Assembly (NCBI GenBank): GCA_018221305.1
Contig: JAAOYK010000062.1
Span: 1 to 59,403, forward strand
Direction of reading: 5' to 3'
From: Candidatus Pacearchaeota archaeon
Lineage (GTDB): Archaea > Nanobdellota > Nanobdellia > Pacearchaeales > GW2011-AR1
Length of the DNA: 59,403 nucleotides
In this document: piece after piece, positions 9,894 to 54,205 of the stretch
How positions within the stretch are numbered: the first letter of the stretch is position 1
How the letters are laid out: each line of letters begins with the position of its first letter
Made by a program: the position numbers and the translations under genes
The notes under the pieces: model-generated
What the model saw: the letters and a program-made list of their open reading frames with translations, nothing else
What the model was told of the DNA's origin: nothing
The model's database searches: none

Positions 9894-10892
9894 ATGGAAA
9901 TAATACTCTTAATGTCATTGGTGATAAGTTTTTTGGTCACGCTTTTGCTTATGCCTGCTTGGATCAAAAAGTGCAGACAAATCGGTCTTTTGTGGCGAGA
10001 TATGAATAAATACAAACATCCAGAAAATGTTGCGTCATCTGGAGGTTTAATTGTTATCACAGGATTTGTGTTAGGAGTTTTATACTTTGTTGCTTTTCGT
10101 ACATTCTTATTAAACGCAACAAATGGAATAAATATTCAGATCTTTGCAGTATTATCTGTTGTGTTAATCTTTGCAATACTTGGATTTGTTGATGATATTT
10201 TAGGATGGAGTCATGGAGGATTACCAAAAAGAGTTAGACTACTGCTTGCATTTGTTGCTTCAATCCCATTAGTTGTCATTAATGCAGGGACACCATTTAT
10301 TAATGTGCCATTTTTTGGTGAACTTAATTTAGGATTTTTTTATCTTTTGGTAATGATCCCCTTAGCAATAGTGGGTGTTTCAACAACATACAATTTTTTG
10401 GCAGGGTTTAATGGTTTGGAAGCAGGGCAAGGTATTTTGATATTATCCTTTTTGTCCTATGTTGCTTATGTTACAGGAAGTGCCTGGCTTGCTGTAATCG
10501 GACTTTGTATGGTGGCATCATTAGCTGCATTTTATCTATATAATAGAGTACCTGCAAAAGTTTTTCCAGGAGATATATTAACTTATTCTACAGGGGCAAT
10601 GATTGCGATAATGTGTATCTTAGGTAATTTTGAAAAAGTTGCAGTGTTTATTTTCATACCATACATCATAGAAGTTATCCTTAAATTAAGAGGTGGGCTA
10701 AAAAAATATTCTTTTGCCAAACCAAATAAAGATGGAAGTTTAAGCATGCCTTATGACAAAATTTACGGACTTACGCATTTGTCATTATTCCTATTAAAAA
10801 AGGTAAAGAAAAAGGTCTATGAACGAGATGTTGTATATTTTATTTTCGGGATACAATTAATATTTATTATAATTGGATTTTTCTTGATTTAA
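9894..10892 (+). CDS. aglH: UDP-GlcNAc:polyprenyl/dolichyl-phosphate GlcNAc-1-phosphotransferase (MraY/GPT family)
   Basis: DMNKY, GFVDD, YNFLAGFNGLEAG, PAKVFPGD motifs; multi-TM. Confidence 0.88.
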   Translation: MEIILLMSLVISFLVTLLLMPAWIKKCRQIGLLWRDMNKYKHPENVASSGGLIVITGFVLGVLYFVAFRTFLLNATNGINIQIFAVLSVVLIFAILGFVDDILGWSHGGLPKRVRLLLAFVASIPLVVINAGTPFINVPFFGELNLGFFYLLVMIPLAIVGVSTTYNFLAGFNGLEAGQGILILSFLSYVAYVTGSAWLAVIGLCMVASLAAFYLYNRVPAKVFPGDILTYSTGAMIAIMCILGNFEKVAVFIFIPYIIEVILKLRGGLKKYSFAKPNKDGSLSMPYDKIYGLTHLSLFLLKKVKKKVYERDVVYFIFGIQLIFIIIGFFLI

Positions 10893-11000
10893 ACAAATTT
10901 GGTTAGATCTAACACTTTAGAAGAAATACACCATAAAACATTTAAATCGTTTTCTGTAAACAAACATAGAGGGGAGATACGAGTTTTGAAGAATTTGAAC

Positions 11001-11738
11001 ATGGCAAAAAAAATAAAATTTAGCAGGTATAATTATAAGGACATCCGAGGAATTATTAAAAGCAAGCCGAAAAAACTTATATTTAGTTTTATGAATGCCA
11101 ATGATATTTATTGTTTTTCTAAAGACAAAGATTTTCAAAAATCAGTCACAGATCCAAAAATGAACCGTATCACAAGTGTTGATGGTACTACTACAGCGAT
11201 TGTGTTATCTATTAAAAACTTTCAACGAGTTAAAAGATTAACAGGGCCTGAATTAACCGACAAAATTTTTAAAGATCAAGACGTAATAGACAGTAAAAAA
11301 CATTTTTTTATTGGAGTTGATGAATCAGATTTAGTAAAAATACGCGAAAAATACCCATTATTAAAACAAAAAAAGATGTCTGGATATAATCCACCATACG
11401 TCAAAGGAACACATTTCTCAGCACAAGAAGTACAAAAAATGGTTAAAATAATCAATAAATTTAAGCCAGATTTTCTCTGGATCGGTATTGGTTGCCCAAA
11501 ACAAGAAATTCTTGCATATGATCTTTACGACAAAATTAATCCAAGCTGTATATTTAATGTAGGGGCTGCATTGCAATATATACAAGGCACACAAAAACGT
11601 GCACCAAAGTTCTTTCGAAGTCTTGGCCTTGAGTGGTTATATAGATTATTTAAAGAGTTTAAATTAACAAGTAAAAAGTTATGGAATTCTATGATTGGGA
11701 CGATTATTGGGTTCTTTTTAATAAAATTAGATCAGTAG
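11001..11738 (+). CDS. WecB/TagA/CpsF family glycosyltransferase (GT26)
   Basis: VDG, RLTGPEL, PDFLWIGIGCPKQE, VGAA, RAPKF..LGLEWLYRL; start uncertain (TTG 10899 possible). Confidence 0.88.
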   Translation: MAKKIKFSRYNYKDIRGIIKSKPKKLIFSFMNANDIYCFSKDKDFQKSVTDPKMNRITSVDGTTTAIVLSIKNFQRVKRLTGPELTDKIFKDQDVIDSKKHFFIGVDESDLVKIREKYPLLKQKKMSGYNPPYVKGTHFSAQEVQKMVKIINKFKPDFLWIGIGCPKQEILAYDLYDKINPSCIFNVGAALQYIQGTQKRAPKFFRSLGLEWLYRLFKEFKLTSKKLWNSMIGTIIGFFLIKLDQ

Positions 11739-11803
11739 AATACCAAAGTATTTAAAAAAGCGGATTTATTGATATAAGAAATTAAGAACTCCTTGATTAA
11801 AAG

Positions 11804-14713
11804 ATGGATTGGAAAAAATTTAGTAAAGAATCTGTAAAACAAATTAAAGAAAACCCTACATTTTTTGTTATAAGCTTATTTGGGCTTTTTGCATTATTTT
11901 TATTTTTAGTAAATTTGTTCGCTGTTAAAAATCTTAATAGTACTAATTTTATTGCTGTTTTCATAAATAATTTTATTTATCTAGCAAAGACATTAGGCTT
12001 ATCACAAACAACGATTATTTTATTTTGTGTAGCAGGTTCAGCTGCATTAGCTTATTATAAACGTTTTAAGCTTTCAATAACAATACTTTTGTTATGTGTT
12101 GTTTTTATCGGAGTTAATGTAAGGCTAGCTAATCTACCACTTCTTAAAGATTCAACAAATGGTGAATATCTTCCGCTTGCATTAGACCCATTATATTTTA
12201 TGAGGGTTGCCCAAACTAGGCTTGCGACAAATAATAATCTTCCACAATATGATCCGTTAAGGGTATTTCCTGGTGGAAACATTGCATGGCATCCAGAAAT
12301 CATGCCAGAACTTAACGTATTTATTTTCAAAGTAGCCTCTAACTTTATTTCAGGCATTGATATAAGATTTATTGCAGTAATTTCTCCAGTAATTTATTTC
12401 TTTTTTGCAATTCTATTATTTTACATACTAATATTTAAACTTACAAAAAATAAGGGGATAGCGCTGCTTGCAACACTTTTACTCTCAGTTATTCCGGCAT
12501 ACCTTTACAGGACAATGACAGGTTTTGCAGACCATGAATCTATTGGAATGCTTGCATTTTATTTGACCTTTATCGCATTTGTTTACGCTCTTTCAAATAT
12601 TAATAATAAAAAGGTTGGAAAAGTTGTATTTGCTAGCTTTTTTGTTGGGTTAACAACGACATTAACAATAGCAATGTGGACCGGAATTTCGTCAATTTTA
12701 TTCGTTCTATACCCGTTTACATTTTTCTTTGTATGGCTTTTTAATACAAAAAAAGAGTCAAAAGTGTTTGTAAGAAACGGCCTTACGTTCTATATCGGAT
12801 GGATAATATTTACTGTAATAACAGGATTATTTTTTAAATATAGCCCTATGGGCATGCTTAATTTCTTCCTGGGATCTCAATCCATAATCTCCATAGCAGT
12901 ATTAGGATTTATGGTTGTTGATGCCATATTTATATATACAAAACCAAAATTTGTCAAAAAGAATAAAAGATTATTTTATAGTTTAGGTGTTACTATAATT
13001 TTAGGGGTAATAGTTTTGCCAATAATTGGAATAGACCTCGTAGGTATACTACGTTCAAGTATAGTCAAATTTTTAACACCTTGGAATACAAGCAGGCTAA
13101 ACATCACAGTAGCAGAGAACAAGCAACCATACCTTCAGGATTGGATCGGAACTACAGGAAAGGTTATATTTTGGATGTTTATTTCAGGGGCCGTATTGTT
13201 TGGAATTAGACTTGCAAGAAAAATTAAAAACCTAAAAAAATCTACAATATTTTTTATCCTTTATATTTTAATGATTTTTGGAATTGTTTTTTCAAGAATT
13301 TCTCCTACAAGCACATTAAATGGAGAATCTTTTGCAAGCTCCTTGGTATATTTTATACCTTTGATAGCATTTTGGGTGTATTTTTTTAAGATCTATATGA
13401 ATGAGGATTTTAAATTTACAGGAATACAGATGTTTATATTTTCTTGGTTATTTTTAACAATAGTTACGGGTCGTGCAGCTATAAGAATGTTTTTTGCAAT
13501 AACACCTTTTGTGAGTTTTATGGCAGCATACTTTATTATAGGTATATTTGAAGAAACTAGGCGTGCAAAAGATGAAATTTTAAAAATGATTTTAATAGTA
13601 ATATTTACTTTGATCGTCATATTAACGTTTAACGCTACAGCACAAGCTTACCTTGCTACAAGTAATCAAGCAAAAAATACAGGGCCTTCAGCTAATTTTC
13701 AATGGCAAAATGCAATGTCATGGGTACGAACAAATACTGCAGAAGATAGTGTTTTTGTGCACTGGTGGGATTACGGATACTGGGTGCAAACGTTAGGTGA
13801 ACGGGCTACAATCGCTGATGGAGGGCACTTCCAAGGAGCCTACAATGGAGATCATAAGATTGGAAGATATGTTCTTACAAATCAGGATCCAAATGCAGCT
13901 TTAAGTTTTTTTAAGAGTATGCAAACCGACTATTTACTAATTGACCAGACAGATTTAGGCAAATATTCTGCATATTCGTTGATTGGAAGTGATGCTGAAT
14001 GGGATAGAAGATCTGCTATCCCAGCAGCAGTATATGACCCAAAACAGACAAGAGAAACTAATAAAGGCATTGTATTTAGTTATGTACTTAACAGTATGGT
14101 TGATGAAGATTTAGTATACCAAGAAGGAAATTCATCTAAGATATTTATCCCAGGCCCATCTTATGATGTTAGAGGTAATGCTTTTGCTAATGCAGGAATA
14201 TATAAAATTGAAGTTGGGGTAAGTAACAATAGTGTTACACAACCAATGGCAGCATATTATTTTCAAGGACAAAATTATAACCTTCCAGTAAGATATGTTT
14301 ATATTAATGAACAATTATTTGATTTTAAAAAAGGAGTGGATTCTGTAGTTATGGTACTTCCATATTTTAAGACACAAGGCCAAAGCGGAAATCTAGACCC
14401 TTTCGGGGCAATAATTTATTTAAGTCCAAAGGTACAAAAAAGTCTTTTCGCACAATTATATCTTTTAGATGATGCCTTTGGAAAGTATCCTACAATAAAA
14501 TTAGCACATGAGGAACCAGACCAAATGATCTCTTATTTAAAATCACAAGGAGCTCAACTAAACGAGTTCGTATTCTATGGGGGCCTTAGAGGACCTATAA
14601 AGATATGGGACCTACAAGATATCCCTGAAAATATACAAGTTGTTGAGGAATTTTACGAGTACCAACACGAACAGTACGGAATCCTTGATGATAAACAATT
14701 TATTCTAGAATAA
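11804..14713 (+). CDS. aglB: Oligosaccharyltransferase AglB (STT3 family)
   Basis: DPLYFMR, GFADHE, TVAEN, WWDYGYW and DLGK motifs; multi-TM N-terminal part plus soluble C-terminal domain. Confidence 0.96.
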   Translation: MDWKKFSKESVKQIKENPTFFVISLFGLFALFLFLVNLFAVKNLNSTNFIAVFINNFIYLAKTLGLSQTTIILFCVAGSAALAYYKRFKLSITILLLCVVFIGVNVRLANLPLLKDSTNGEYLPLALDPLYFMRVAQTRLATNNNLPQYDPLRVFPGGNIAWHPEIMPELNVFIFKVASNFISGIDIRFIAVISPVIYFFFAILLFYILIFKLTKNKGIALLATLLLSVIPAYLYRTMTGFADHESIGMLAFYLTFIAFVYALSNINNKKVGKVVFASFFVGLTTTLTIAMWTGISSILFVLYPFTFFFVWLFNTKKESKVFVRNGLTFYIGWIIFTVITGLFFKYSPMGMLNFFLGSQSIISIAVLGFMVVDAIFIYTKPKFVKKNKRLFYSLGVTIILGVIVLPIIGIDLVGILRSSIVKFLTPWNTSRLNITVAENKQPYLQDWIGTTGKVIFWMFISGAVLFGIRLARKIKNLKKSTIFFILYILMIFGIVFSRISPTSTLNGESFASSLVYFIPLIAFWVYFFKIYMNEDFKFTGIQMFIFSWLFLTIVTGRAAIRMFFAITPFVSFMAAYFIIGIFEETRRAKDEILKMILIVIFTLIVILTFNATAQAYLATSNQAKNTGPSANFQWQNAMSWVRTNTAEDSVFVHWWDYGYWVQTLGERATIADGGHFQGAYNGDHKIGRYVLTNQDPNAALSFFKSMQTDYLLIDQTDLGKYSAYSLIGSDAEWDRRSAIPAAVYDPKQTRETNKGIVFSYVLNSMVDEDLVYQEGNSSKIFIPGPSYDVRGNAFANAGIYKIEVGVSNNSVTQPMAAYYFQGQNYNLPVRYVYINEQLFDFKKGVDSVVMVLPYFKTQGQSGNLDPFGAIIYLSPKVQKSLFAQLYLLDDAFGKYPTIKLAHEEPDQMISYLKSQGAQLNEFVFYGGLRGPIKIWDLQDIPENIQVVEEFYEYQHEQYGILDDKQFILE

Positions 14714-14730
14714 ATTAATTAAAAATTATA

Positions 14731-15669
14731 ATGAAGAAGAAAAATGTTATTATTGGAGTTGTTAAAAATTATTCCTATAAAAAAATACGCCCATTTGTAA
14801 AATCTTTAAGAGATACTGGATTTAATGGAGATATTGTTCTTTTCTGTAATGAAGTTCCAAAAAAGACAATAAAACAGCTTAAAGCTGAAAAAGTAATTGT
14901 AAAAGAGTTTAAGATAAAATCTCATGAACATTTAATCCCTGCCAAACAAATTGAAAAAATACCGTATGATCAACTCCCGCTCATGAGTTATAGGTTTATT
15001 TTATATTTAGACTTTTTATTAGAAAATAAAGAAAAGTATGAAAATATAATGTTAAGCGACATAGGAGATGTTATTTTTCAAAAAGATCCATTTGATTTTA
15101 ATATTGGAAAAATGAATTGCTTTTTTTTAATGAACTGCCCAATAAAAGAGGCTCCAGCATATGTTTCGTGGTTAAAGAAAGTTTATGGGATAAAGATTTT
15201 TAACAAATTAAAAAATAAAAACATGAGTTGTGCAGGAACGTTTATTGCAGATTATGATAATATGATTAAATATCTTAAACTTATGAAACAAGAAATTTTT
15301 AAAGGAAATGATCAATGTGTACACAATTATATTTGTTATTCAGGGGTGTTAAAAAATATTAAGCTATTTGAAAATGGGGATGTTATTGCTACAGTCGCAA
15401 GTAAACAAGAACTTCAAAAGGCAATAATAGTTAAAAAAAATAAGGTGTTTAGTAAAAAAGGTGAACTTATAAATATTATTCATGGATATAATCGACACAA
15501 AATACTTTCAAATATTTTCGGAGGAAATAAAGAAAGTAAAATCATTAGAAAGCTTAAAAACAGTAAATATATAACACAAAAAGGGAACAGTTTGCGTAAA
15601 AAGCTTTATAAAATACCTTTCTTAGGTAAGAAAATCAGACAATTTTATCAAAATACAATATTAAAATGA
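14731..15669 (+). CDS. Putative nucleotide-diphospho-sugar transferase (GT-A like)
   Basis: PFVKSLR..GF.GDIV, RF..YLDFL, LSDIGDVIFQKDPF and DQCVHNY patterns. Confidence 0.6.
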   Translation: MKKKNVIIGVVKNYSYKKIRPFVKSLRDTGFNGDIVLFCNEVPKKTIKQLKAEKVIVKEFKIKSHEHLIPAKQIEKIPYDQLPLMSYRFILYLDFLLENKEKYENIMLSDIGDVIFQKDPFDFNIGKMNCFFLMNCPIKEAPAYVSWLKKVYGIKIFNKLKNKNMSCAGTFIADYDNMIKYLKLMKQEIFKGNDQCVHNYICYSGVLKNIKLFENGDVIATVASKQELQKAIIVKKNKVFSKKGELINIIHGYNRHKILSNIFGGNKESKIIRKLKNSKYITQKGNSLRKKLYKIPFLGKKIRQFYQNTILK

Positions 15670-16193
15670 AACTACACTTAGGATGCGGGATTGATAAGAA
15701 AGCAGGATATGTAAACATAGACCGGTCTGATCAAGTTAATCCAGATCTGGTCTGGGATTTAGAAGAAACACCCTTACCTTTTGAAGATAATAGTATAACA
15801 GAGGTCGTAGCAAATCATGTTTTTGAACATTTATACAATTTTGTACCTTTGATGCATGACTTAAGAAGAATATGCGTCCCAGGAGCTAAAATCAAGATAA
15901 AAGTACCATTTTATTCTACATGGGGGCAATATAATGATCCAACACATGTAAGATTTTTTAGCCCGTTCACTTTTAACTACTTTCAAAAAGGTAATTATTC
16001 ACATGAAGTTGAATGCAAAGACAATATGTTTAAGATAAATAAGGTTAAAATTAATTTTGGGATCGGACGTGCAAGTAAACTAAACTGGATAATGAATCCA
16101 ATAATTAACCTGCATCATGCCTTTTATTGTAGATTTGCGGCCTGGATTATACCTTCCTCTGAGATTGAATTTGAGCTAGAAGTTTTAAAATAA
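15666..16193 (+). CDS. Class I SAM-dependent methyltransferase-domain protein
   Basis: KLHLGCG, VNID, HVFEHL and DPTH motifs. Confidence 0.85.
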   Translation: MKLHLGCGIDKKAGYVNIDRSDQVNPDLVWDLEETPLPFEDNSITEVVANHVFEHLYNFVPLMHDLRRICVPGAKIKIKVPFYSTWGQYNDPTHVRFFSPFTFNYFQKGNYSHEVECKDNMFKINKVKINFGIGRASKLNWIMNPIINLHHAFYCRFAAWIIPSSEIEFELEVLK

Positions 16194-17012
16194 TTATTTC
16201 TTAGGTATAAGTACTACGTTAATAATTCCGCGTACAGCTATTTCTGAAAACAAAATATTTTTATTTTTATAAAACACGCCTTTATCTGAGCATACACTAT
16301 ATCCTTTTAATGAAAAAATAAAATCAACATAGTCCTTAAGCCCTTCCTCATCTGCTCCGATCTCGGCAATAACATATGGATGGAATTTTTTTATGACTTC
16401 ACGAGCCCCTAAAAGTACTTTGGCGTCAAAACCATCAGTATCAGTCTTTATTAATCTAACATTTTTTATTTTATTTTTCTTAACATATTCATCCAAAGTT
16501 ACAAATTTTACTTTTTCTTCACTAGGGCCTTTTGCTGATTTAAACATAGAATACTGGTTTTGGAAATAGAATTTCTGTGTTCCAGGTTTATCTGAAACTC
16601 CTAGTTTTTCAAGGTTTATATTTTTGAAGTTGTTTAAAAGCAAATTTATCTGCATCCGCTTATTTGCAGAAGTCATCGGTTCAAATGAATAAACAGAACC
16701 CTTATCACCTACAATTCTTGAAGATAATAAAGAATAATATCCAACATTTGCACCAACATCTAAAACCACGTCGCCAGGACGTAGAAACTTCTTAAAAAAT
16801 CGTGTTATAGTGGGCTCATAAAAATCATAATAAATACCACTTTCAACCATATCATTTAACCTTAGCAAAAAATTTATCCCTCTCCGCCTTGCAAAAACCA
16901 CCTTATTTTTGTCCCTTTTCCTATAAAATTTAAACAGTTTTGAAAGAGTTTTTCTAAAGGGCCTACTAGAAGATGCATAATATGATTTTAAGAGAGAATT
17001 CATTAAGGTCAT
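16194..17012 (-). CDS. FkbM family methyltransferase
   Basis: LDVGANVGYYS, VYSFEP, TLDEY, IKTDTDG. Confidence 0.9.
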   Translation of the reverse strand: MTLMNSLLKSYYASSSRPFRKTLSKLFKFYRKRDKNKVVFARRRGINFLLRLNDMVESGIYYDFYEPTITRFFKKFLRPGDVVLDVGANVGYYSLLSSRIVGDKGSVYSFEPMTSANKRMQINLLLNNFKNINLEKLGVSDKPGTQKFYFQNQYSMFKSAKGPSEEKVKFVTLDEYVKKNKIKNVRLIKTDTDGFDAKVLLGAREVIKKFHPYVIAEIGADEEGLKDYVDFIFSLKGYSVCSDKGVFYKNKNILFSEIAVRGIINVVLIPKK

Positions 17013-17140
17013 TTTTAGATTGAGTATTAGATATAAAAAAATTTATGTAAGATCAATTTATAAAGTTATAGGTGATTTATACATTAAATTAGTAATATGC
17101 AAAACATTTAAAATAAAGAGAAAGTAAATTATATGTTATC

Positions 17141-45669: not shown

Positions 45670-45760
45670 TATAAGATTTTATTATTTTTTTGATTTTAAA
45701 AAGATATAATCAGTAAGAGCTCATTAAAAATAATAGTGAAGACCTACCTTATTAATCTTT

Positions 45761-47017: not shown

Positions 47018-47069
47018 TTTGATTTTTAGAATTAACAATATATAAACATTATCATACAGGACAAAAGTA

Positions 47070-47111
47070 ATGTAGCTTAAAGTACTCTATATGTAGTTTA
47101 AAGTGCTCTAT
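47070..47111. repeat. Tandem 21-bp direct repeat (2 copies)
   Basis: ATGTAGCTTAAAGTACTCTAT / ATGTAGTTTAAAGTGCTCTAT, 19 of 21 identical, in a divergent intergenic region. Confidence 0.8.
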
Positions 47112-47161
47112 AATAAAATTTATATACTTTCTTTAAAGAATATTAAGATATAGAACTAAAC

Positions 47162-47887
47162 ATGGCAAAAAATAAATTTCTAAACCAAAGAAAAAGGGGG
47201 ATTATTAAAAAAATCCTTCCAAAAAAGATTGTTGAACATATTAGATATAAAAATGTCGCAAAAAGATTAAACACGGTTAAGAAATCACAAGATTTTTTAA
47301 AACTTCATGAGGAAGTAAAACAAATTAAGAAATATCTTCAAAATCCAAAACATTTAATAGACATTGGTGCAAATTGTGGTGAAATCTCTTTTTACTTATC
47401 AAAAGAATATCCTAATGCTAAAATCTATGCATTTGAACCTGGAACAAGAGCATTTAATGTTTTGCGGAAAATAAAAAAGAAATTTCATTTAAACAATCTT
47501 TTAATATATAAAATGGCCTTAGGAGATAAAAAAGAAATTGTAGGAATGGAATTTCCAGATTCAAATGATACTTTAGCATTCATAACAAAAAGAAAAAATT
47601 CAAAGAACAAAGTGAGAATAGAAAAATTAGATGATTTTATTGCAAAGAAAAAAATTACTCAAATAGATTTCATAAAAATTGATGTCGAAGGTTTTGAAAT
47701 GAAGATTTTAAATGGGGGAGCAAACTCAATTAAAAAATCAAAGCCATTAATGTTAGTAGAAGTAGACGAGGGAAATCAGAAGAGGTTTAATCACAGTTCT
47801 AAAGATATTTTAGACTTTATGAAAAAAATGAAATATGAAAAAATTCAGCATGATAATAATTATCTTTTCATACCAAAACGTAAATAG
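47162..47887 (+). CDS. FkbM family methyltransferase
   Basis: IDIGANCG, IYAFEP, LDDF, IDFIKIDVEGFE. Confidence 0.92.
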   Translation: MAKNKFLNQRKRGIIKKILPKKIVEHIRYKNVAKRLNTVKKSQDFLKLHEEVKQIKKYLQNPKHLIDIGANCGEISFYLSKEYPNAKIYAFEPGTRAFNVLRKIKKKFHLNNLLIYKMALGDKKEIVGMEFPDSNDTLAFITKRKNSKNKVRIEKLDDFIAKKKITQIDFIKIDVEGFEMKILNGGANSIKKSKPLMLVEVDEGNQKRFNHSSKDILDFMKKMKYEKIQHDNNYLFIPKRK

Positions 47888-47891
47888 AATC

Positions 47892-48545
47892 TTAAAGATT
47901 AACAAGATCTTGTTTAAGTAAAGCTTCTGCAAATAAAAAATCAGTAAGAGTATCAATATCAACTGCTTCTATATCATTCACCTGAACAGTTTTTACATTA
48001 CCACAAACACGCTTTGCATATTTCTTAAATGATTCTTTTCGAATAAAATAAAAATCTGCTTCTTCTTGAACAGGGATTAATGATTGAGTGCCAATTAAGT
48101 TATTAATATCATGATTAATAGGCTTATCTTTATACCAAAAACGGTTTTGTCTTGGAACAATACCAATCAGAGAATCTATACTAGGGTCTTGTTCCATCAA
48201 AGAAATGGATCTTTTTATAGTTTCAACAGTCAAAAAAGGCGTAGTAATAAGAATCCAGCCAATAATGTCATAATCTAACATATCAACTATCCGGTCTAAA
48301 AGTTCATTTCCTTGAATATGGTCAGCATCATATTCTTCTGGACGTTTTAAAGTCTTAAATCCCCATTCTTTTGCTATATTTAACACATGATCATCTGAGG
48401 AATCAATATATACATCAACACCAACAAGCTTTTTTAACGTGCTAAAAACATATGTATAAAGTGGCTTTCCATTTAGCAGTTTAAAAGTTTTTCCAGGTAA
48501 TCGCTTATTAGTAGTCTTTATTGTTGTAACAATACAGGTTTTCAT
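47892..48545 (-). CDS. CMP-ulosonate synthetase-like cytidylyltransferase (NeuA/KdsB family)
   Basis: KTTNKRLPGK..LLNGKPL, RPEEY, TTPF, EAVDIDT..DF. Confidence 0.85.
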   Translation of the reverse strand: MKTCIVTTIKTTNKRLPGKTFKLLNGKPLYTYVFSTLKKLVGVDVYIDSSDDHVLNIAKEWGFKTLKRPEEYDADHIQGNELLDRIVDMLDYDIIGWILITTPFLTVETIKRSISLMEQDPSIDSLIGIVPRQNRFWYKDKPINHDINNLIGTQSLIPVQEEADFYFIRKESFKKYAKRVCGNVKTVQVNDIEAVDIDTLTDFLFAEALLKQDLVNL

Positions 48546-48700
48546 GATTTCAGAATAAGAAATGTATTTAAATAAATTTGGGTCTTAAACAAACGCTATG
48601 AAGCCAAGTTTAGTACAAGATTTATACAAATGCAAACATGTATTTTTGCGAAACATTAATTTTTTATAGGCATTATTATTCATATTTACTTGACTACAAA

Positions 48701-49297
48701 ATGATGCACGATGCAAAAAAAGACATTACAGAATATATTACTAGATATAGCAAAGCATTAAGTGAAATGAACCATCCGGTTTTGCAAAAAGCAACAGACT
48801 TCTTGAGAACAAGAGATTATGGAACAATTTTTACTGCAGGAAATGGGGGAAGTATGTCAACTGCAGAACATATGGCAGCAGATTTAAACAAATGGACAAA
48901 TTCTGGTGATCAAAAAAAATATATTCGAGCGCAATGCTTAAATTCTAATCCTCCAGAAATGAGTGCATTAACTAATGATGTTGGTTGGTCAAAAGTGTAT
49001 GAAACGCTTTTAGACATATACCAGGCAAAAAAAGATGATGTGTTAATAGTTTATAGTGTTCATGGAGGAAAAGGAAAAGAAAAAGCAGGACAATGGAGCG
49101 AGAATTTGACAGGAGCAATAGATTGGATGAACAGAAAGGATGGAACAACAATAGGCATAACAGGCGGAGATGGTGGAGCATTTAAAGATCTTTGTGATTA
49201 TTGTATTATAGTACCATCAGCATCAACACCGATTGTTGAAGGGCTACATTCAGTTATAAGTCACATAATCGCAGATTCAGTACGTGCTCATAATTAA
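48701..49297 (+). CDS. gmhA: Phosphoheptose isomerase-like SIS protein
   Basis: AGNGGS...AEH.AAD, ALTND, DVLIVYSVHGG, S.N, TGGDGG, VEGLH. Confidence 0.82.
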   Translation: MMHDAKKDITEYITRYSKALSEMNHPVLQKATDFLRTRDYGTIFTAGNGGSMSTAEHMAADLNKWTNSGDQKKYIRAQCLNSNPPEMSALTNDVGWSKVYETLLDIYQAKKDDVLIVYSVHGGKGKEKAGQWSENLTGAIDWMNRKDGTTIGITGGDGGAFKDLCDYCIIVPSASTPIVEGLHSVISHIIADSVRAHN

Positions 49298-49367
49298 AAA
49301 AAAAGTTGTTATTTATATACTTTCAAAGATAATAAATTATTTAAACATATTTTAAAGACTCATATAC

Positions 49368-50234
49368 ATGGAAATAGAATTTTTTGCAGATACAGCAAGC
49401 ATACAAGAAATTAAACACTGTTTTGCAAATGGCGTAGATGACGGTATTACCACAAATCCAAAAATAATAGAAACAAGCGGCGACTTATCTAAAGGAATTA
49501 AGTCTGCATATCAATCATTAATTGAAAAATATCCAAACGTTCCCATTAGTCTTGAAACTGACTTAAGAGGACTAAATGTTAATGAAATAGAAGCTGTACC
49601 AGAACAAGTTAGTGAAATATTATTAGGTCAAGCATATGACTTAATGGATTTGAGTGAAAATGTGGTTATTAAAATTCCAATATGTACTGGAGGCCTTTTA
49701 GCTACACAAGAACTAACAAAACAAGGTATACGAACAAATGTTACTGCATGTATGACGCCTTATCAAGCACTTGCAGCTGCTCAAGCAGGAGGAACATATG
49801 TTAGCTTGTTTGCAAACCGAATGCTTGATTCAGAAATATTAGCACTTTCAGGAAATAAATTAGAAGAAATTGTTACAAATCCAGAATGGAAATCTATTGT
49901 GAAAGAAAATACTAAAAAACATTTTGATGAAGCATGGGGAAAAACATCAGGAGCAATTGCATATGTTGCAGAAAAATTAGATGGAACTAAATCTAAACTA
50001 ATTGTTGGCAGCATACGGTTGCCTGAAGATATTCATAAAATTGTTCAGGCAGGACCGCAAGTAATCACAATCCCTTATGGAATTGTAAGCCAAATGGGTG
50101 ATATGACGCATCTAAAAAATACACAAAGAACTATTGATTATACAGACGTAAAAGTTGGTAATTCAATAACTCATCCAATGACTCAATACACATTAGACGA
50201 ATTTGAAAAATCTGCAGATAAATATAGAAAATAA
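49368..50234 (+). CDS. tal: Transaldolase (small TalC/FSA-fold type, with an insertion)
   Basis: FADTA, GITTNP, SLE, VIKIP (Schiff-base Lys), NVTAC, YVSLFANR (Phe, i.e. transaldolase rather than FSA type), GSIR. Confidence 0.88.
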   Translation: MEIEFFADTASIQEIKHCFANGVDDGITTNPKIIETSGDLSKGIKSAYQSLIEKYPNVPISLETDLRGLNVNEIEAVPEQVSEILLGQAYDLMDLSENVVIKIPICTGGLLATQELTKQGIRTNVTACMTPYQALAAAQAGGTYVSLFANRMLDSEILALSGNKLEEIVTNPEWKSIVKENTKKHFDEAWGKTSGAIAYVAEKLDGTKSKLIVGSIRLPEDIHKIVQAGPQVITIPYGIVSQMGDMTHLKNTQRTIDYTDVKVGNSITHPMTQYTLDEFEKSADKYRK

Positions 50235-50240
50235 AGATAT

Positions 50241-51161
50241 TTAATTTTTAAATCTAAAAAAGTGCATCAGTTTAGTTTTTCTTAAAAAAGTATTAATTAT
50301 CTTTTGCTTAAAACTCCATGCAAACAGCCGATCATCTGACTCTCTATCAGCAACCATAAAAGGAGGATGTTTTAATGGGAAACTTAATTCTTTTGTAGGT
50401 AATGACCTTTTTTTGTCAAGGTAAGTCATGTTAGAAGCATTAGAAGACATTCCAATATTTGTTATAAGATTTTCATTAGGGATTATAACTAAGCCATTAT
50501 TATAAATTATATTATACACCCATTGAGGGTCCCATACCTGAAATCCATTAATAATATGTTTAAAGTTTGATTTAAGAACCATTCGTTCCAAAAAGTTAGG
50601 ATATACATCTTTTAGATATCCTTTATCTTTAAATTCTTTATATCCTTTCATGTCTGCACTGTAAGTCTTCCATGCACGCCGCCAGGTTGCCCAGCCCCAA
50701 GTATATGGAGATTTTGAAAAATAGTACGAATAATTGTCACGTTTCCAGCCCCTTTGACAGTTACTTCCTGCAATCTGCATGATTCTATCATCATGTTTAT
50801 ATTTTTCAAGTAGTTCCTGACAAAACCAATAAAAACTGTTATTTGGAATACAGTCATCCTCTAGAATGATACCATCCTCTACATGACTAAAAAACCAATC
50901 CAAAGTGTCAATATAACCACCTTTAAGGCCTTTGTTTGTTTCTTTGTAAAAAGTTTTTAACTGGCATGGCCAGTCAATCTTTGTAAATATTTTTTTAACC
51001 TCATCTACTAAAGGTTTATCATTTTCATTTCTTGGACCGTCTATTGCTACAAAAAGTTTTAAAGGCCTTACACGCCTAATAGATTCAAAAAGTTTTTCTG
51101 TTAATTCTGGTCTTATAAATGCAAGGACCAAGATTGGAGTTTTTAATTGTGGGGTTCTCAT
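50241..51161 (-). CDS. GT-A nucleotide-diphospho-sugar transferase
   Basis: F.RP, DGPR, IILEDDC, WGWATWRRAW, NLITNIG. Confidence 0.85.
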   Translation of the reverse strand: MRTPQLKTPILVLAFIRPELTEKLFESIRRVRPLKLFVAIDGPRNENDKPLVDEVKKIFTKIDWPCQLKTFYKETNKGLKGGYIDTLDWFFSHVEDGIILEDDCIPNNSFYWFCQELLEKYKHDDRIMQIAGSNCQRGWKRDNYSYYFSKSPYTWGWATWRRAWKTYSADMKGYKEFKDKGYLKDVYPNFLERMVLKSNFKHIINGFQVWDPQWVYNIIYNNGLVIIPNENLITNIGMSSNASNMTYLDKKRSLPTKELSFPLKHPPFMVADRESDDRLFAWSFKQKIINTFLRKTKLMHFFRFKN

Positions 51162-51166
51162 TTTAT

Positions 51167-51763
51167 TTAGTGGTTTTTTCGTTTAGTAAGTTTTAAGACA
51201 ATCCAACAGTGTGGAAGAAGAAAAGCAGAATTTTTAAATCTTCTCCTTTTCTGAATAACTCGGGTGTTAAAGCCTAATTTTCTCATCTGATCAATAATTT
51301 CATTCATTTTCCATCGTGACACATGACAATTAAAAGAATTTTTTTCTTTTTGTCGTTTTGGGTCTAATTTAGTATAAGGCACTGCTACATAACAAAACCC
51401 GTCATCATCTAATAAATCATAAACCTGAGACATAAGATATAAAGGATTTTTTATGTGTTCAAGCACTTCCATTAAAAAGATTGTTTTATATTTCCCTTTT
51501 AGATTTAGTCTTTTTGTTATATCTTTTTTGATAAATTTATAATTTCCAGCAAGATTCTCTTTTCCTGCTATATCAACTATTGTGGCCTTATCCACCCCTA
51601 AATATTTTAAAAAAGTTCCAGCTCCACCTCCAATTTCTAAAACTGGATCTTTAATCCTAAAACGTAAAGATCTGTATAAGCTTCTATAATAACCTGAATT
51701 AGAGTTTAGCTGCAAAGACCTTTTCCACCAAACTTCAGCAGTTTTTATGCAATCATTTTCCAT
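51167..51763 (-). CDS. Class I SAM-dependent methyltransferase
   Basis: VLEIGGGAG, VDI, EVLEHI..P, G...VAVP. Confidence 0.82.
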   Translation of the reverse strand: MENDCIKTAEVWWKRSLQLNSNSGYYRSLYRSLRFRIKDPVLEIGGGAGTFLKYLGVDKATIVDIAGKENLAGNYKFIKKDITKRLNLKGKYKTIFLMEVLEHIKNPLYLMSQVYDLLDDDGFCYVAVPYTKLDPKRQKEKNSFNCHVSRWKMNEIIDQMRKLGFNTRVIQKRRRFKNSAFLLPHCWIVLKLTKRKNH

Positions 51764-51857
51764 TATTTAAGGAAAAAGAATGATATTTTAAATATTTCTA
51801 TCAATTGATATAATCAATACCCTAAAACTTTTTAAAGTATAACTGGATTCAAAAGTT

Positions 51858-52793
51858 ATGAATATTTTAATTACAGGGTGTGACGGTTTTATAGGAAATG
51901 CATTAGTAGGTAAACTAAAAAATCGGTATAATAAGGTTATTGGATTTGGAAGAGAAAGAAATATGCAAGATAAAAAATTGCATACTCCTGACGTGTTTAT
52001 TCAAGGAGATGTTAGAGATTATGACCTTTTGCGCAGAGTTATCACAGATTATGAAATTGATGAAGTTTATCACTTAGCAGCACAAGCAATTGTAAGAACA
52101 TGTTCTAATGACCCGTACAGCACTTTTGATATTAATGTGATGGGAACAGTAAGTCTTTTAGAGGCATGTAGAAACTCTGGCCAAAATGTTAAAAGTATCA
52201 CAATATCTACCAGTGATAAAGCTTTTGGAGATGCTCCTATTCCTTATACTGAAGAAACCCAACTTAACCCGCAATATGTTTATGATACATCAAAAGGTTG
52301 TCAACAATTTGTATCTAGATGTTATTTTAATAATTATAACGTTCCAACAAAAGTTGTTGCATGTTCAAACATTTATGGTCCTGCAGATTTTAATATGTCA
52401 AGAATAATACCAAATACAGTAACACGTCTTGCAAAAGGTCAGCCAGCCCTACTAAATAAAGGAGTTGCAGATTATATAAGAGAATTTGTCTTTATTGACG
52501 ATGCTGCTAATGCTTTTATTGCAGTTTCAAGAAATGGAACACCTGGAGAAACTTATTGTTGTGGAGGAACTGAACATCTTCCTATAAAAGAGTTAATAGA
52601 AAGAATATGCACTATGATGGGAAAAGATTTTTCAGAAATTGAATTATTTGAAAGACCGTCCCAGTTTAAAGAAATACCAAAACAACAAATTGACTCAACA
52701 AAACTTCGTTCGCTTGGTTGGGCACCACAATATACCTTAAATGAAGGTTTACAAAAAAGTATTGAATTCTATTCAGATTTAGTAAAAAACTAA
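51858..52793 (+). CDS. NDP-sugar 4,6-dehydratase-like extended SDR (CDP-glucose/GDP-mannose dehydratase-like)
   Basis: TGCDGFIG, HLAAQAIV, NVMGT, STSDKAFG, YDTSK, NIYGP.D. Confidence 0.85.
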   Translation: MNILITGCDGFIGNALVGKLKNRYNKVIGFGRERNMQDKKLHTPDVFIQGDVRDYDLLRRVITDYEIDEVYHLAAQAIVRTCSNDPYSTFDINVMGTVSLLEACRNSGQNVKSITISTSDKAFGDAPIPYTEETQLNPQYVYDTSKGCQQFVSRCYFNNYNVPTKVVACSNIYGPADFNMSRIIPNTVTRLAKGQPALLNKGVADYIREFVFIDDAANAFIAVSRNGTPGETYCCGGTEHLPIKELIERICTMMGKDFSEIELFERPSQFKEIPKQQIDSTKLRSLGWAPQYTLNEGLQKSIEFYSDLVKN

Positions 52794-52825
52794 ATGAGCA
52801 CTTTATTTTCAGAATTTATTTTGTT

Positions 52826-54205
52826 TTAAGCCTTATGAAACTTTTTACTGACCCACAGCCCGAAAAAGTAAAAATATCTTGAAAAGACTGTTGCAAGCGC
52901 TGCACCGATTACTGCAAAATTATGACCTAATTTAAGTCCAAAATTTATTAAGACATAATTTAGTAAAACATTAAGTATTGTTGACAATATTAAAATTTTT
53001 GCAACAACTTTAATATTTTTTTGTGAAATAAAATAAGTTTCATAAAGGGAAATAATCGGAGTAACTATCAAAAGTAAAGACAAAATACGCAAATAAGTTA
53101 TTGACTGATGATATTCTTTACCATAAATTATTAGAATAAATATTCCTGCTACAAAAAAGGTTATAACAAAGAGGGCACAAGAGATTAAAAACATGATTTT
53201 TTGAGCCTTTTTAAGTCCACGATCCAATTTTTTTCCTTTAAGGCGACTAAATATTGGAAGCAGGGCAGATGAAGAAAAGCTTACTAAAGCTATCACAGAA
53301 GTGACAAGAACCAGGGCTGCAGAATAAAACCCGATTTGTACAGCAGGAAGATAATGACCTAACATTATACTATCAATGTACCCAAAAAATATTCCAGAAA
53401 GGTTCATAAATGCTATTGGTAAAACTAAAAGCCAAAAAGCCTTTATCTCGCTACGAGTTAACTTTTCAGGTTTTATCTTAAAAAGTTTTGATCGTTTTCG
53501 GTAAGTTATGAAAAGGTAAATTCCAGGAATAATAAATGTAACAGCTAAAACTAAAAACATAAAAAATAGGATTTTGTCTGGAGAGCCAAGTCTTTTAATA
53601 AAAAATACTAAAAATATTGGAACCAAGGTAAGTTTTAGTATTTGAAGAATTATTTCTTGATAAAAAGGAATTTTAAAATCATTATTTGAAGTAAATATTG
53701 GAATAATAAAATTAGAAATGTTCACTATAAGATAATAAAGCGATCCTGCAAGGAGTCCAAGATAAATTGGTTTTTGATAATAACCTCCTGCAAGCCATCT
53801 AGCAGAAAAAATAATGATAAAAACAGAGAAAAAAAGAAGAATTACTTTTGCTTTAAAAATATAATTCAAATATGCTTTTGCTTTTCTTGGCCTTGATTCA
53901 AGATTTCCTGATAAATATGTTATTAAAAGGGCTGCAAGACTAAACGTGAAAAAGCCACCAATTAAAGAAAGAGTTGCATTGATTAATCCATATAAACCAT
54001 AAAGCTCTGGCATTAACAAACGCGCAATCATAATTGTAAAAATTAATCCGCCCACTTTCGTAGTGATATTTCTGACAAACTGTAAAGTAGAATTTTTTAT
54101 AGCTATACCCTTATATCCTGAAAAGTCCCTAGTTTTAATCCTTATAAAAAAATCCTTTATGCTTGATTTCCCTTTCCTTACTTCATTTCTAATTCTGGAT
54201 CTCAT
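52826..54205 (-). CDS. Oligosaccharide flippase (Wzx/AglR, MOP superfamily)
   Basis: KNS, IARLL.PE.YG, D.IMLG..L....IGFYSAA, NVLLNY.LI...GAA.AT; many TM helices. Confidence 0.9.
   Translation of the reverse strand: MRSRIRNEVRKGKSSIKDFFIRIKTRDFSGYKGIAIKNSTLQFVRNITTKVGGLIFTIMIARLLMPELYGLYGLINATLSLIGGFFTFSLAALLITYLSGNLESRPRKAKAYLNYIFKAKVILLFFSVFIIIFSARWLAGGYYQKPIYLGLLAGSLYYLIVNISNFIIPIFTSNNDFKIPFYQEIILQILKLTLVPIFLVFFIKRLGSPDKILFFMFLVLAVTFIIPGIYLFITYRKRSKLFKIKPEKLTRSEIKAFWLLVLPIAFMNLSGIFFGYIDSIMLGHYLPAVQIGFYSAALVLVTSVIALVSFSSSALLPIFSRLKGKKLDRGLKKAQKIMFLISCALFVITFFVAGIFILIIYGKEYHQSITYLRILSLLLIVTPIISLYETYFISQKNIKVVAKILILSTILNVLLNYVLINFGLKLGHNFAVIGAALATVFSRYFYFFGLWVSKKFHKA

Follow-up and report, generated by a model that had tools for sequence, protein, structure and literature searches.

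N-glycans are the outermost chemistry of archaeal cells, and in Haloferax volcanii, Halobacterium and Methanococcus the genes for their synthesis form agl clusters that are anchored by aglB, the gene for the oligosaccharyltransferase. In bacteria, Wzx-dependent O-antigen and capsule loci occupy fixed genomic positions, and streamlined aquatic bacteria of the SAR11 type possess hypervariable glycosylation regions. The content of aglB-anchored clusters differs between close relatives, and a heptose is present in the N-glycan of Thermoplasma (both according to PMC11407970). The present analysis concerns an island of 42 open reading frames (ORFs) at positions 9894-54307 of a 59,403-nucleotide stretch of DNA (the window) that is the entire contig C45 (JAAOYK010000062.1) of the metagenomic bin G000, from Candidatus Pacearchaeota. 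The island begins with an AglH-like gene, includes an AglB gene and ends with a gene for a Wzx-type flippase. It is probably, although by no means certainly, the G000 version of an N-glycosylation locus that is fixed in position and replaceable in content, with a mechanism and a GDP-sugar chemistry that can be proposed from the functions of the respective protein families.

Several precedents are pertinent to this chemistry. In Campylobacter jejuni, GDP-3,6-dideoxy-heptose is made by a 4,6-dehydratase, a pyridoxal phosphate (PLP)-dependent C3-dehydratase, an epimerase and a reductase (PMC10440746). Pairs of alpha and beta subunits of the pyruvate dehydrogenase E1 component (PDH-E1) attach a two-carbon branch derived from pyruvate to nucleoside diphosphate (NDP)-4-keto sugars, as in the case of Plm8/Plm9 (paulomycose) and AviB1/AviB2 (eurekanate), and YerE (yersiniose) is functionally comparable (PMC4802897). 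For the archaeon Nanobdella, a preprint reports AglB, AglD and AglE genes (bioRxiv 10.1101/2023.10.27.564410).

Position and content of the island in related archaea

The first 9.7 kb of the window encode, as identified by profile searches, the archaeal ribosomal proteins L18/L5e, S5, S3, L30 and L15, as well as SUI1, SecY, an EMC3/YidC-like insertase, VanZ, prefoldin, an IF-2B-family protein and a SpoIIM-family membrane protein. The latter (8835-9695, +; PF01944) is the conserved left anchor of the island and is 72-81% identical in the genus relatives, where it is found beside AglB/AglH. The last 5 kb of the window encode the right anchor, which consists of a conserved protein with four transmembrane segments located between the flippase and SecD (54267-54755, -; 25-41% identical in G004, G031, G027 and G013, always beside SecD) and of SecD and SecF (54954-57346, -; PF02355), along with repeat-containing ORFs.

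This arrangement is not specific to G000. Examination of 40 kb around aglB in each of ten relatives (six from the same genus and four from other families) shows that the frame recurs, in full or in part, in all ten, with ribosomal proteins, SecY, YidC, VanZ, prefoldin, IF2B and SpoIIM on one side, AglB and AglH next to them, a variable stretch in the middle, and Wzx, the four-transmembrane protein, SecD and SecF on the other side. The stretch from AglH to Wzx spans about 11 kb in G036, about 17 kb in G027 and about 20 kb in G031, and in these three genomes Wzx homologues adjoin SecD. Of 150 sampled genomes of the order (G000 excluded), 138 have an AglH-like gene and 144 have SecD (139 and 145 of 151 once G000 is counted); a shared contig carries both genes in 71 genomes, 68 of which show them in convergent orientation. 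The gap between them, from which AglB is left out in genomes where it sits beyond AglH, measures 21.4 kb at the median (interquartile range 16-33 kb, full range 4.3-97 kb) and is equal to or larger than the 44.06 kb of G000 in 13 of the 71 genomes.

Among the large gaps, the glycan content was examined in one genome, that of the genus member G013, the approximately 0.7-Mb genome of which contains a 68-kb SecD-AglH interval (C1:31640-99300), roughly a tenth of the genome. The 64 scanned ORFs of this interval (out of 67; three that cross the locus borders were left out) include five NDP-sugar enzymes of the short-chain dehydrogenase/reductase (SDR) superfamily, five radical S-adenosylmethionine (SAM) enzymes, four of these with a B12 domain, and five GT2 and two GT1 glycosyltransferases. 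Also present are two sugar C-methyltransferases of the TylC3 type, three NUDIX proteins, three cytidylyltransferase-like proteins, a DegT-family protein, an asparagine synthase, an NTP-transferase and two GtrA-like proteins. Thus, the original prediction that the island is an exceptional investment for its lineage is not supported: 13 of the 71 relatives have a gap of at least this size, up to a tenth of a 0.7-Mb genome can be taken up by such a locus, and another 27 GT1/GT2 matches are found beyond the island in G000. In addition, about 10% of the proteome of Nanopusillus acidilobi is likely devoted to surface glycosylation (PMC6142677).

Few genes of the G000 island have counterparts in the islands of relatives, mostly at the level of identity typical of paralogues, and therefore the predicted hypervariability of the stretch between aglB and secDF is borne out at both genus and order depth. 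A metagenome comparison seeded with AglH, all figures of which refer to the best 80 of 381 relatives, identifies L050 as the nearest relative, with SpoIIM 89% and AglH 71% identical. On these sequence comparisons, the locus appears to be fixed in position and replaceable in content across the order.

The replacement includes AglB itself. The AglB proteins of six genus relatives are 51-58% identical to each other in pairwise comparisons, and the G000 AglB is 30-33% identical to them. AglB proteins from different families are mostly 34-40% identical, with one pair at 55-57%, so that the G000-to-genus values are lower than those between families. In contrast, for AglH (62-66%), SecY (74-78%) and SpoIIM (72-81%), G000 is no more distant from the genus members than these are from one another. 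In a quick maximum likelihood tree of 18 AglB sequences, G000 groups with the partial AglB of the genus member G017 and with G031, which belongs to another family (SH-aLRT support of 100), and the eight other AglBs of the genus form a separate clade, also with a support of 100. Forcing the ten AglBs of the genus together costs 159 log-likelihood units, and monophyly of the genus is rejected by the approximately unbiased (AU) test (p-AU 2.5e-24), with the group set by kinship labels and the tree inspected beforehand. The order of the two genes varies as well. Of the 46 metagenome loci that contain both genes, 34 have AglB followed by AglH, with AglB 29-39% identical to that of G000 (median 32), and 12 have AglH followed by AglB, as in G000, with AglB at 34-44% (median 37); AglH is 61-71% identical in both groups. 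In sum, AglB is swapped in G000, while AglH, SecY and SpoIIM behave vertically.

The G000 assembly comprises 1,258,565 bases in 67 contigs (GC content 32.3%, completeness 60.7%, contamination 1.3%). Genomes of the same order in the collection are 0.3-1.3 Mb in size and, given these sizes and the archaeal markers, the lineage is taken to be DPANN-like, which fits the minimal archaeon that had been predicted. In such a bin, with a coverage of about 4x and a completeness of 60.7%, with many glycan genes on short contigs and with a bacterial protein as the closest relative of one gene among representative genomes, the island could in principle be an assembly or binning chimera of an archaeal backbone and foreign DNA. 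This explanation is nevertheless hardly credible: both flanks are archaeal, the relatives carry the same frame with glycan genes inside, and nine genes of one cassette of the island recur in the genus relative G010 (see below). There is no tetranucleotide outlier either: when the 219 chunks of the genome are ranked by distance from its mean, the ten whole 5-kb chunks between 5001 and 55000, which cover nearly all of the island, fall between the 10th and 94th percentiles. A sediment metagenome run (probably that of the source sample) contains 75% of the words sampled from 7000-16999, and its depth over 5000-24999 stays at 1-6x in each of the 30 bins, without a step where the island begins and without variant letters or joints. 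The contigs of this run are at most 904 bp long among the pieces shown, so that the support from depth is weak and non-independent; the comparative evidence from relatives is a stronger argument against a chimera than depth or composition. The chimeric assembly named as a potential refutation of the original prediction is thus unsupported, with neither a tetranucleotide break nor a depth step detected.

A mobile genomic element was also considered and rejected: no integrase or transposase was found among the Pfam matches of the window proteins, no tRNA gene in the window and no repeats flanking the island, and there is no tetranucleotide break. No Rfam family, and so no cobalamin riboswitch, was detected in the window. 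As far as the sequence indicates, the island is a replaceable locus and not a mobile element.

Glycan core and sugar modules

Thirty-eight of the 42 ORFs of the island lie between AglB and the flippase, and 37 of the 42 belong to a Pfam family at E <= 0.001; the five without a Pfam family start at 14731, 37776, 40530, 42654 and 50241. Six glycosyltransferases are recognized by Pfam (one of the GT4 family, WecG, two of Glycos_transf_1, GT11 and Glyco_trans_1_2), and two weak leads, 42654 (BFO_1060-GT-like) and 14731 (GT-A-like Atlas neighbours), bring the total to about eight. There are six methyltransferases, six SDRs and two radical SAM enzymes with a B12-binding domain. Every class of genes listed in the original prediction is present, including the approximately eight glycosyltransferases, and one gene was absent from that list, namely the DegT-family gene 26010-27281 (-), which looks like a 3-dehydratase. 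Polytopic membrane proteins of the island are limited to AglH, AglB and Wzx. Its Pfam matches include neither a Wzy-like polymerase nor a Wzz-like chain-length regulator nor an ATP-binding cassette (ABC) exporter, which fits delivery of a single oligosaccharide, rather than a polymer, to the oligosaccharyltransferase; the island has no gene for a GT2 or dolichyl-phosphate (Dol-P)-sugar synthase.

The island is a mosaic of modules with differing histories. The core module (9894-20253) contains AglH, WecG, AglB, a possible GT-A-like protein, two methyltransferases, two GT-B enzymes and a GT11 enzyme. The AglH-like polyprenyl-phosphate HexNAc-1-P transferase (GT4-family/MraY-WecA-GPT; 9894-10892, +), the proposed initiator, matches PF00953 (Glycos_transf_4) with 107 bits against a cut-off of 27 and contains about 11 transmembrane segments; its sole NCBIfam match is a weak one to MraY (1.7e-13). 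The glycosyltransferase of the WecG/TagA family (GT26; 10899-11738, +; PF03808, 115 bits) is proposed to add the second sugar, of the ManNAc or ManNAcA type. WecG is rare, being present in 10 of the 401 genomes of the phylum sample, and is located within or beside the AglH-SecD interval in three relatives. Two UDP-GlcNAc 2-epimerase genes are encoded elsewhere in G000, making a UDP-ManNAc donor plausible.

The AglB/STT3 oligosaccharyltransferase (11804-14713, +), of the non-vertical type for the genus, matches PF02516 (66.2 bits against a cut-off of 24.5; 60.6 bits in the whole-genome scan) and PF21436 (27.8 against 23). It contains, at residue 654, the motif WWDYG, which is the catalytic motif of the AglB/STT3 C-terminal domain, and a DxxK motif (DLGK) downstream. 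At the opposite end of the island, the flippase of the Wzx/MOP family (52826-54307, -) contains the domains PF01943, PF13440 and PF01554 (56.5, 55.4 and 43.1 bits against cut-offs of 28.2, 23 and 24.9, respectively) and about 10 transmembrane segments. Position 54205, the end of the flippase as first proposed, corresponds to a plausible ATG within this ORF and is the likely start. The predicted logic of lipid-linked assembly, with the core enzymes at the two ends and an AglB that carries WWDYG, is thus retained.

Among the other genes of the core module, a 312-aa protein (14731-15669, +) has no Pfam, NCBIfam or PDB match, and is a lead for a GT-A-like glycosyltransferase, its structural neighbours in the Atlas (TM-scores 0.70-0.77) including clusters with GT8, GT29 or GT7 families. 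It is followed by a 175-aa SAM methyltransferase (15666-16193, +; PF08241, 1.7e-5), with 33-44% identical homologues in four metagenome loci, and by an FkbM-family methyltransferase (16194-17012, -; PF05050, 62 bits). Two GT-B glycosyltransferases of the Glycos_transf_1 family, GT1_a (17141-18232, +; PF00534; 49-60% identical in G031, L050, L061 and L098) and GT1_b (19159-20253, +; PF00534, 87.5 bits; 44-49% identical in L050 and L061), flank a glycosyltransferase of the GT11 (alpha-1,2-fucosyltransferase) family (18229-19107, +; PF01531, 108 bits; 49% identical in L061). The core assembly genes are common to a minority of relatives, at 40-60% identity: L050 has the array AglH-AglB (40%)-GT1_a (53%)-WecG (45%)-GT1_b (49%), L061 has GT1_a (60%), GT11 (49%), WecG (45%) and GT1_b (44%), and L098 has AglB (44%) and GT1_a (51%).

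The second module (20264-30892) is a GDP-sugar cassette. It starts with a fusion (20264-22303, -) of an HddC-like sugar-1-phosphate guanylyltransferase (residues 1-224; NF049965, 2.4e-54, 184.3 bits against a cut-off of 300) and an HddA-like heptose-7-phosphate kinase (residues 343-676; NF049969, 9.1e-77, 258.7 against 600). Next to it are an extended SDR of the NDP-sugar epimerase/dehydratase family (22340-23320, -; PF01370; weak matches to GalE and to 4,6-dehydratases; 58% identical in G010) and a 538-aa CgeB-like glycosyltransferase (23451-25067, +; PF13524, Glyco_trans_1_2, 72 bits). The latter is a candidate transferase for the modified sugar, and its homologues are found near the E1 pair and/or B12-radical SAM genes in G010, G016, L043 and L044. 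A GDP-L-fucose-synthase (Fcl)-like 3,5-epimerase/4-reductase (25094-26038, +; NF047922, 1e-126, 422 bits against a cut-off of 500) is 62% identical in G010. The three Fcl-like SDRs of the island (two of them in the next module) and the HddC-like domain point to GDP-linked sugars.

The DegT-family protein 26010-27281 (-) is predicted to be a sugar 3-dehydratase of the E1/ColD type that depends on pyridoxamine phosphate (PMP). Its best PDB matches are the CDP-4-keto-6-deoxyglucose 3-dehydrase E1 (3bcx/3bb8, 3.6e-58) and ColD (2gms, 1.7e-53), both of which outrank aminotransferases. Residue His210 aligns with a position occupied by H in 3bcx and K in 3bb8, which we take to be the position of the Schiff-base lysine of sugar aminotransferases; with a histidine at this position, the protein reads as a PMP-dependent 3-dehydratase and not as an aminotransferase. 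Furthermore, four cysteines (CSCSPC...YC) align with the cysteine-rich stretch of 3bcx.

The two genes next to the 3-dehydratase encode thiamine pyrophosphate (TPP) enzyme subunits, a PDH-E1-alpha-like protein (27301-28200, +; PF00676; TIGR03182, 1.2e-37; GDG...EDN motif; 62% identical in G010) and a PDH-E1-beta-like protein (28173-29096, +; PF02779 and PF02780; 69% identical in G010). Apart from G010, this type of E1-beta is not encountered: at 1e-20, matches come from 11 of the 401 genomes of the phylum sample, and the ten besides G000, one of which is flagged as unpublished, are at most 32% identical. No E2 component (PF00198) was found in G000, a bin that is 60.7% complete; this result and the sugar-enzyme neighbours, which are also present in G010, fit a role of the pair outside a pyruvate dehydrogenase complex. 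The cassette is completed by a NUDIX hydrolase (29082-29573, -; PF00293), a DJ-1/PfpI-family protein (29608-30159, +; PF01965, 138 bits; 58% identical in G010) and a 258-aa cupin-domain protein (30116-30892, +; PF07883 below cut-off). The cupin is a candidate sugar epimerase with a 39% identical counterpart that adjoins the DJ-1 gene in G010, and a PDB sequence search started with it gave a single chance-level match (E 0.34). Altogether, nine genes of the cassette are found within about 23 kb in G010, at 34-69% identity, the HddC-HddA fusion (51%) included.

The third module (30896-37606) is an operon of SDR and B12-radical SAM genes. It encodes a HAD-IA phosphatase of the beta-phosphoglucomutase family, a candidate sugar phosphatase (30896-31546, +; PF13419, 116 bits, and NCBIfam matches); an Fcl-like extended SDR (31607-32572, +; PF01370; NF047922, 137 bits); a B12-binding radical SAM enzyme of the KedN5-like C-methyltransferase family (32562-34565, +; NF033712, 3.3e-75; CxxxCxxC at residue 209); a classical short-chain dehydrogenase (34562-35293, +; PF00106, 120 bits); another Fcl-like extended SDR (35271-36260, +; NF047922, 142 bits; 44% identical in L043, near the radical SAM homologue); and a second B12-binding radical SAM enzyme (36269-37606, +; PF04055, 73 bits; PhpK-family-like, 6.5e-34; CxxxCxxC at residue 195). 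The Radical_SAM domain is recognized in the two enzymes with 37.6 and 73.2 bits, respectively (cut-off 29.5). By the NCBI cut-off, the protein 32562 would be KedN5-like but not a member of that family. A scan of representative genomes for loci with a KedN5-like enzyme yields only two, with the best match (42%) in L043 (CACDRY010000007.1, 3183-18346), a surface-glycan-like locus in the single amplified genome (SAG) of an uncultured member of Pelagibacteraceae. This locus shares the KedN5-like enzyme (42%) and the Fcl-like SDR (44%) with the island and has, nearby, weaker E1-alpha-like, CgeB-like glycosyltransferase and HddA-like kinase genes; therefore, the same pool of enzymes is found in streamlined aquatic bacteria.

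The fourth module is a decoration operon on the opposite strand (37776-42518, -). It includes an SGNH/GDSL (AlgX-like) protein with one N-terminal transmembrane segment (37776-38777, -), which has no Pfam or PDB match but gives a structural match in the Atlas (TM-score 0.76, within the bar for Lipase_GDSL_2) and is a lead for a glycan O-acyl transferase or esterase; a carbamoyltransferase of the NodU/CmcH type (38767-40527, -; PF02543, 260 bits; PF16861, 231 bits); an 83-aa ORF with one hydrophobic or transmembrane segment and no family, which may not be a gene (40530-40781, -); and two SAM methyltransferases, of 310 aa (41069-42001, -; PF13847, 74 bits) and 165 aa (42021-42518, -; PF13489 and PF08241).

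The fifth module (42654-48545) encodes a 445-aa protein that weakly resembles BFO_1060-family glycosyltransferases and has no Pfam match (42654-43991, +; NF046086, 1.5e-12, 47 bits against a cut-off of 200), an inositol-monophosphatase (IMPase)-family phosphatase (43992-44729, -; PF00459, 149 bits), a phosphoglycerate-dehydrogenase-like D-2-hydroxyacid dehydrogenase (44713-45669, -; PF02826; TIGR01327, 2.5e-58), a GFO/IDH/MocA oxidoreductase (45761-47038, -; PF01408), an FkbM-family methyltransferase (47162-47887, +; PF05050, 73.5 bits) and a CMP-sugar-type cytidylyltransferase (CTP_transf_3, weakly PseF-like; 47892-48545, -; PF02348, 43 bits; TIGR03584, 6.8e-15).

The last module (48638-52793) would supply the heptose precursor. 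A SIS-domain protein (48638-49297, +; PF13580) resembles the sedoheptulose-7-phosphate isomerase GmhA (TIGR00441, 3.5e-19, 69.4 bits against a cut-off of 209) and has a 35% identical counterpart in G004. It is followed by a protein of the transaldolase/fructose-6-phosphate-aldolase family (49368-50234, +; PF00923, 117 bits), for which supply of sedoheptulose-7-phosphate is proposed and which is 63% identical in G004; in that genome, the transaldolase, GmhA, HddA and HddC genes are grouped together. The module further contains a 306-aa protein (50241-51161, -) with no Pfam, NCBIfam or PDB match, for which the AF2 single-sequence model is unusable (pLDDT 35.6) and a 37% identical homologue is found beside GT1_a in L098; a 198-aa SAM methyltransferase (51167-51763, -; PF13489, 55 bits); and an extended SDR that resembles NDP-sugar 4,6-dehydratases (51858-52793, +; PF16363, 176 bits; TIGR01181, 8.2e-53, below cut-off).

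Additional glycan genes are found elsewhere in the bin. G000 has 12 GT2 matches over the cut-off, none on C45, and 17 GT1 matches, two of them on C45; the 27 further matches (12 GT2 and 15 GT1) are on C42, C43, C11, C9, C5, C56, C57, C67, C51, C21, C14, C49 and C32. A second STT3-family gene (C3:4611-7412, -), on a contig of 7.5 kb and with a GT2 gene directly beside it, encodes a 933-aa protein with the motif WWDFG and an acidic low-complexity C-terminal tail; this protein shares 22-28% identity with the AglBs of the island and of the relatives. Ten genes with B12-binding domains are encoded in G000, on C21, C14, C37, C15, C49 and C56 and in the window at 32562-37606, in frames of 384-683 aa. 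Most are sized like B12 radical SAM enzymes, several of which are also carried by the islands of relatives, and six of the eight outside the island are within 3 kb of a match to a glycosyltransferase or to WecB (UDP-GlcNAc 2-epimerase). Many glycan genes of the bin are on contigs of 4-20 kb, and those on short contigs represent either more clusters or fragments of variant islands from co-occurring strains. The variable regions of such strains possibly assemble poorly, so that these genes may not all belong to one cell.

Two features of the flanks deserve mention. The ORF of ribosomal protein S3 (1674-2720) encodes 348 aa, of which about 206-217 residues align in five of the six relatives with a match; the remainder is a lysine- and glutamate-rich extension (AAG/GAA-rich DNA), and the L30 and L15 ORFs are likewise long. 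Beyond SecF, at 58233-59220, imperfect repeats of about 144-165 nt with 64-84% identity occur within two unannotated ORFs (58236-59144 and the open-ended 59147-59401), suggestive of a repeat protein.

Proposed pathway and alternatives

The comparisons above establish the family memberships, the conserved position, the sharing of modules and the replacement of AglB, whereas the N-glycan destination and the sugar chemistry outlined here are derived from family assignments and gene context. The AglH-type enzyme would begin a lipid-linked oligosaccharide, which the enzyme of the WecG/TagA type and five to six soluble glycosyltransferases would extend in the cytoplasm, with nucleotide sugars supplied by enzymes of the island itself. 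Six SAM methyltransferases, the carbamoyltransferase and perhaps the SGNH-type acyl enzyme could decorate the glycan, the Wzx-type flippase would turn it outward, and the island AglB would move it en bloc onto asparagine residues of secreted proteins. In the proposed route to the characteristic sugar, sedoheptulose-7-phosphate would be converted by GmhA, HddA, a phosphatase and HddC to GDP-D-glycero-D-manno-heptose; a 4,6-dehydratase followed by the PMP-dependent 3-dehydratase would then produce a GDP-3,6-dideoxy-4-keto sugar, to which the PDH-E1 alpha/beta pair would add a two-carbon branch from pyruvate. Reductases and epimerases of the Fcl-like type might finish the sugar, and the B12-radical SAM enzymes might add C-methyl groups. 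The cassette shared with G010 is predicted to make a 3,6-dideoxy, C2-branched sugar derived from GDP-heptose.

Several observations weigh against this interpretation. The link of the island to N-glycans rests on adjacency to AglB and is circumstantial. The matches to HddA, HddC and GmhA are all under the NCBIfam equivalog cut-offs, and GmhB was not found among the family matches of the island, the candidates for the phosphatase in its place being the HAD-IA protein 30896 and the IMPase-family protein 43992. More than one SDR is a candidate for the 4,6-dehydratase, and a canonical GDP-mannose 4,6-dehydratase was not detected over the cut-off in G000 (60.7% complete). A reductase partner of the ferredoxin-reductase type for the E1-type dehydratase is absent from the Pfam matches of the island. 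The B12-binding domains of the two radical SAM enzymes score 29.9 and 27.1 bits against a cut-off of 32.1 in hmmscan; in the genome scan the values are 33.4 and 26.1, which puts the first enzyme above and the second below the cut-off, and the score of the enzyme 32562 against the KedN5 family is 253.5 against a cut-off of 700. How the steps are ordered, which nucleotide serves as the carrier, what each radical SAM enzyme acts on and what the 42654-48545 module makes are all guesswork. The contigs of the sediment run (<=904 bp), none of which was seen to bridge a module border among the pieces shown, do not independently bridge any junction. Finally, given the second STT3-family gene and the 27 further GT1/GT2 matches, the product of the island may use another route, or other clusters may feed this AglB.

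The last point leads to an alternative that appears rather unlikely but has a number of observations in its favour, namely that the locus serves several glycoconjugates, so that only the core module (9894-20253) builds the N-glycan and the distal modules serve other acceptors (glycolipids, O-linked glycans, an exported polysaccharide or the glycan of the second STT3). The island is modular, with a separate history for each part; the second STT3-family gene (WWDFG) is beside a GT2 gene on C3; the module with the CMP-type cytidylyltransferase has no recognizable partner synthase in the island; and seven or eight glycosyltransferases together with several sugar pathways are much for one oligosaccharide. 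However, a single flippase is encoded in the island, which lacks a polymerase, an exporter and a second acceptor transferase, and in the relatives the whole variable stretch is located between AglB/AglH and Wzx, an arrangement that is more readily compatible with a single N-glycosylation locus.

The enzymes of the distal operons (27301-48545) also bring to mind a diffusible small molecule or a glycosylated natural product instead of a surface glycan. The secondary-metabolite-like character of the sugar enzymes, noted in the original prediction, is evident in the PDH-E1 pair, with its Plm8/Plm9 and AviB1/AviB2 precedent (PMC4802897), and in the KedN5-like radical SAM enzyme; such pairs, KedN5-like enzymes and carbamoyltransferases are best known from the sugar pathways of antibiotics. 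Yet no scaffold genes of the polyketide, nonribosomal peptide synthetase (NRPS) or ribosomally synthesized and post-translationally modified peptide (RiPP) type are present among the Pfam matches of the island, and the same types of enzymes occur in surface-glycan contexts, in the Pelagibacteraceae SAG, in a metagenome-assembled genome (MAG) of Omnitrophota and in the AglB-linked islands of the relatives, which makes a small molecule a very improbable product. An N-glycosylation locus remains the preferred interpretation.

A broader proposition can be put forward tentatively, although as a whole it is more doubtful than the assignment of the locus: the order would keep one fixed locus of the surface-serotype kind, from SpoIIM to SecDF, in which AglB is exchanged together with the glycan genes, and the G000 version would place on proteins a GDP-heptose-derived 3,6-dideoxy sugar with a TPP-added C2 branch, cobalamin-dependent C-methyl groups and a carbamoyl group. 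We know of no archaeal N-glycan of such chemistry. If the proposition is correct, the cell surface would, with ten B12-domain genes in the bin and most of these beside glycan genes, depend on cobalamin; should the cell be unable to synthesize this cofactor, a host or the community would have to supply it. Hosts and viruses would meet small-genome symbionts of the DPANN type at their N-glycans, and the product might, as originally suggested, end up on S-layer N-glycans and serve host attachment or virus evasion. Because the locus is fixed, replaceable and has a swapped oligosaccharyltransferase, the order offers a natural library of paired AglBs and glycans for the study of oligosaccharyltransferase specificity, and the enzymes encoded in the window, being amenable to expression, offer a concrete route to a C-branched, C-methylated deoxyheptose that can be put to the test.

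Comparison with described glycan loci

In the open-access literature, of which a limited part, supplements aside, was covered, no description was found of a fixed SpoIIM-SecDF locus, of AglB swapping or of B12-radical SAM enzymes in the glycan clusters of such archaea; in PMC10936187, the terms 'glycosyl', 'oligosaccharyl' and 'radical SAM' do not occur. Like the agl clusters of Haloferax volcanii, Halobacterium and Methanococcus, the G000 locus combines the oligosaccharyltransferase with glycosyltransferases, sugar-nucleotide enzymes, methyltransferases and a Wzx-like flippase. Unlike these clusters, it is much larger (42 genes), relies on initiation of the AglH/GPT type plus the WecG/TagA type, has no GT2 or Dol-P-sugar synthase, and includes TPP, B12-radical SAM and carbamoyl chemistry, with AglB exchanged at a fixed site between SpoIIM and SecDF.

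The predicted sugar pathway resembles that of the C. jejuni capsule in the activation of GDP-heptose, a 4,6-dehydratase-like SDR, a PLP/PMP-dependent C3-dehydratase, a candidate cupin epimerase and SDRs similar to C4-reductases, with homology below the equivalog cut-offs. The archaeal pathway differs in being linked to AglB, in the fusion of HddC and HddA, and in the presence of a transaldolase-family gene, an extra PDH-E1 pair and B12-radical SAM enzymes. The PDH-E1 pair itself is comparable to Plm8/Plm9 and AviB1/AviB2, being likened to them by gene context and not by sequence: adjoining E1-alpha and E1-beta genes without E2 are located beside a 3-dehydratase gene in a deoxysugar pathway, and formation of a 3,6-dideoxy-4-keto sugar that is subsequently branched follows the logic of yersiniose synthesis. 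In contrast to those systems, the context is a surface glycan rather than an antibiotic, and the carrier is probably GDP, not dTDP or CDP.

With the O-antigen, capsule and SAR11-type loci, the island shares conserved flanks, mosaic cassettes and the lack of an integrase, tRNA or flanking repeats and, as far as one Pelagibacteraceae SAG is concerned, also a pool of enzymes that includes the B12-radical SAM, the Fcl-like SDR, the HddA-like kinase and the CgeB-like glycosyltransferase. It differs from these loci in the use of an STT3-type oligosaccharyltransferase for the acceptor step, encoded inside the variable part, and in having neither Wzy nor Wzz. An aglB-anchored glycosylation cluster at a replaceable locus is thus of a known kind, rather than the undescribed system that had been suspected, and the island is an unusually rich example of it.

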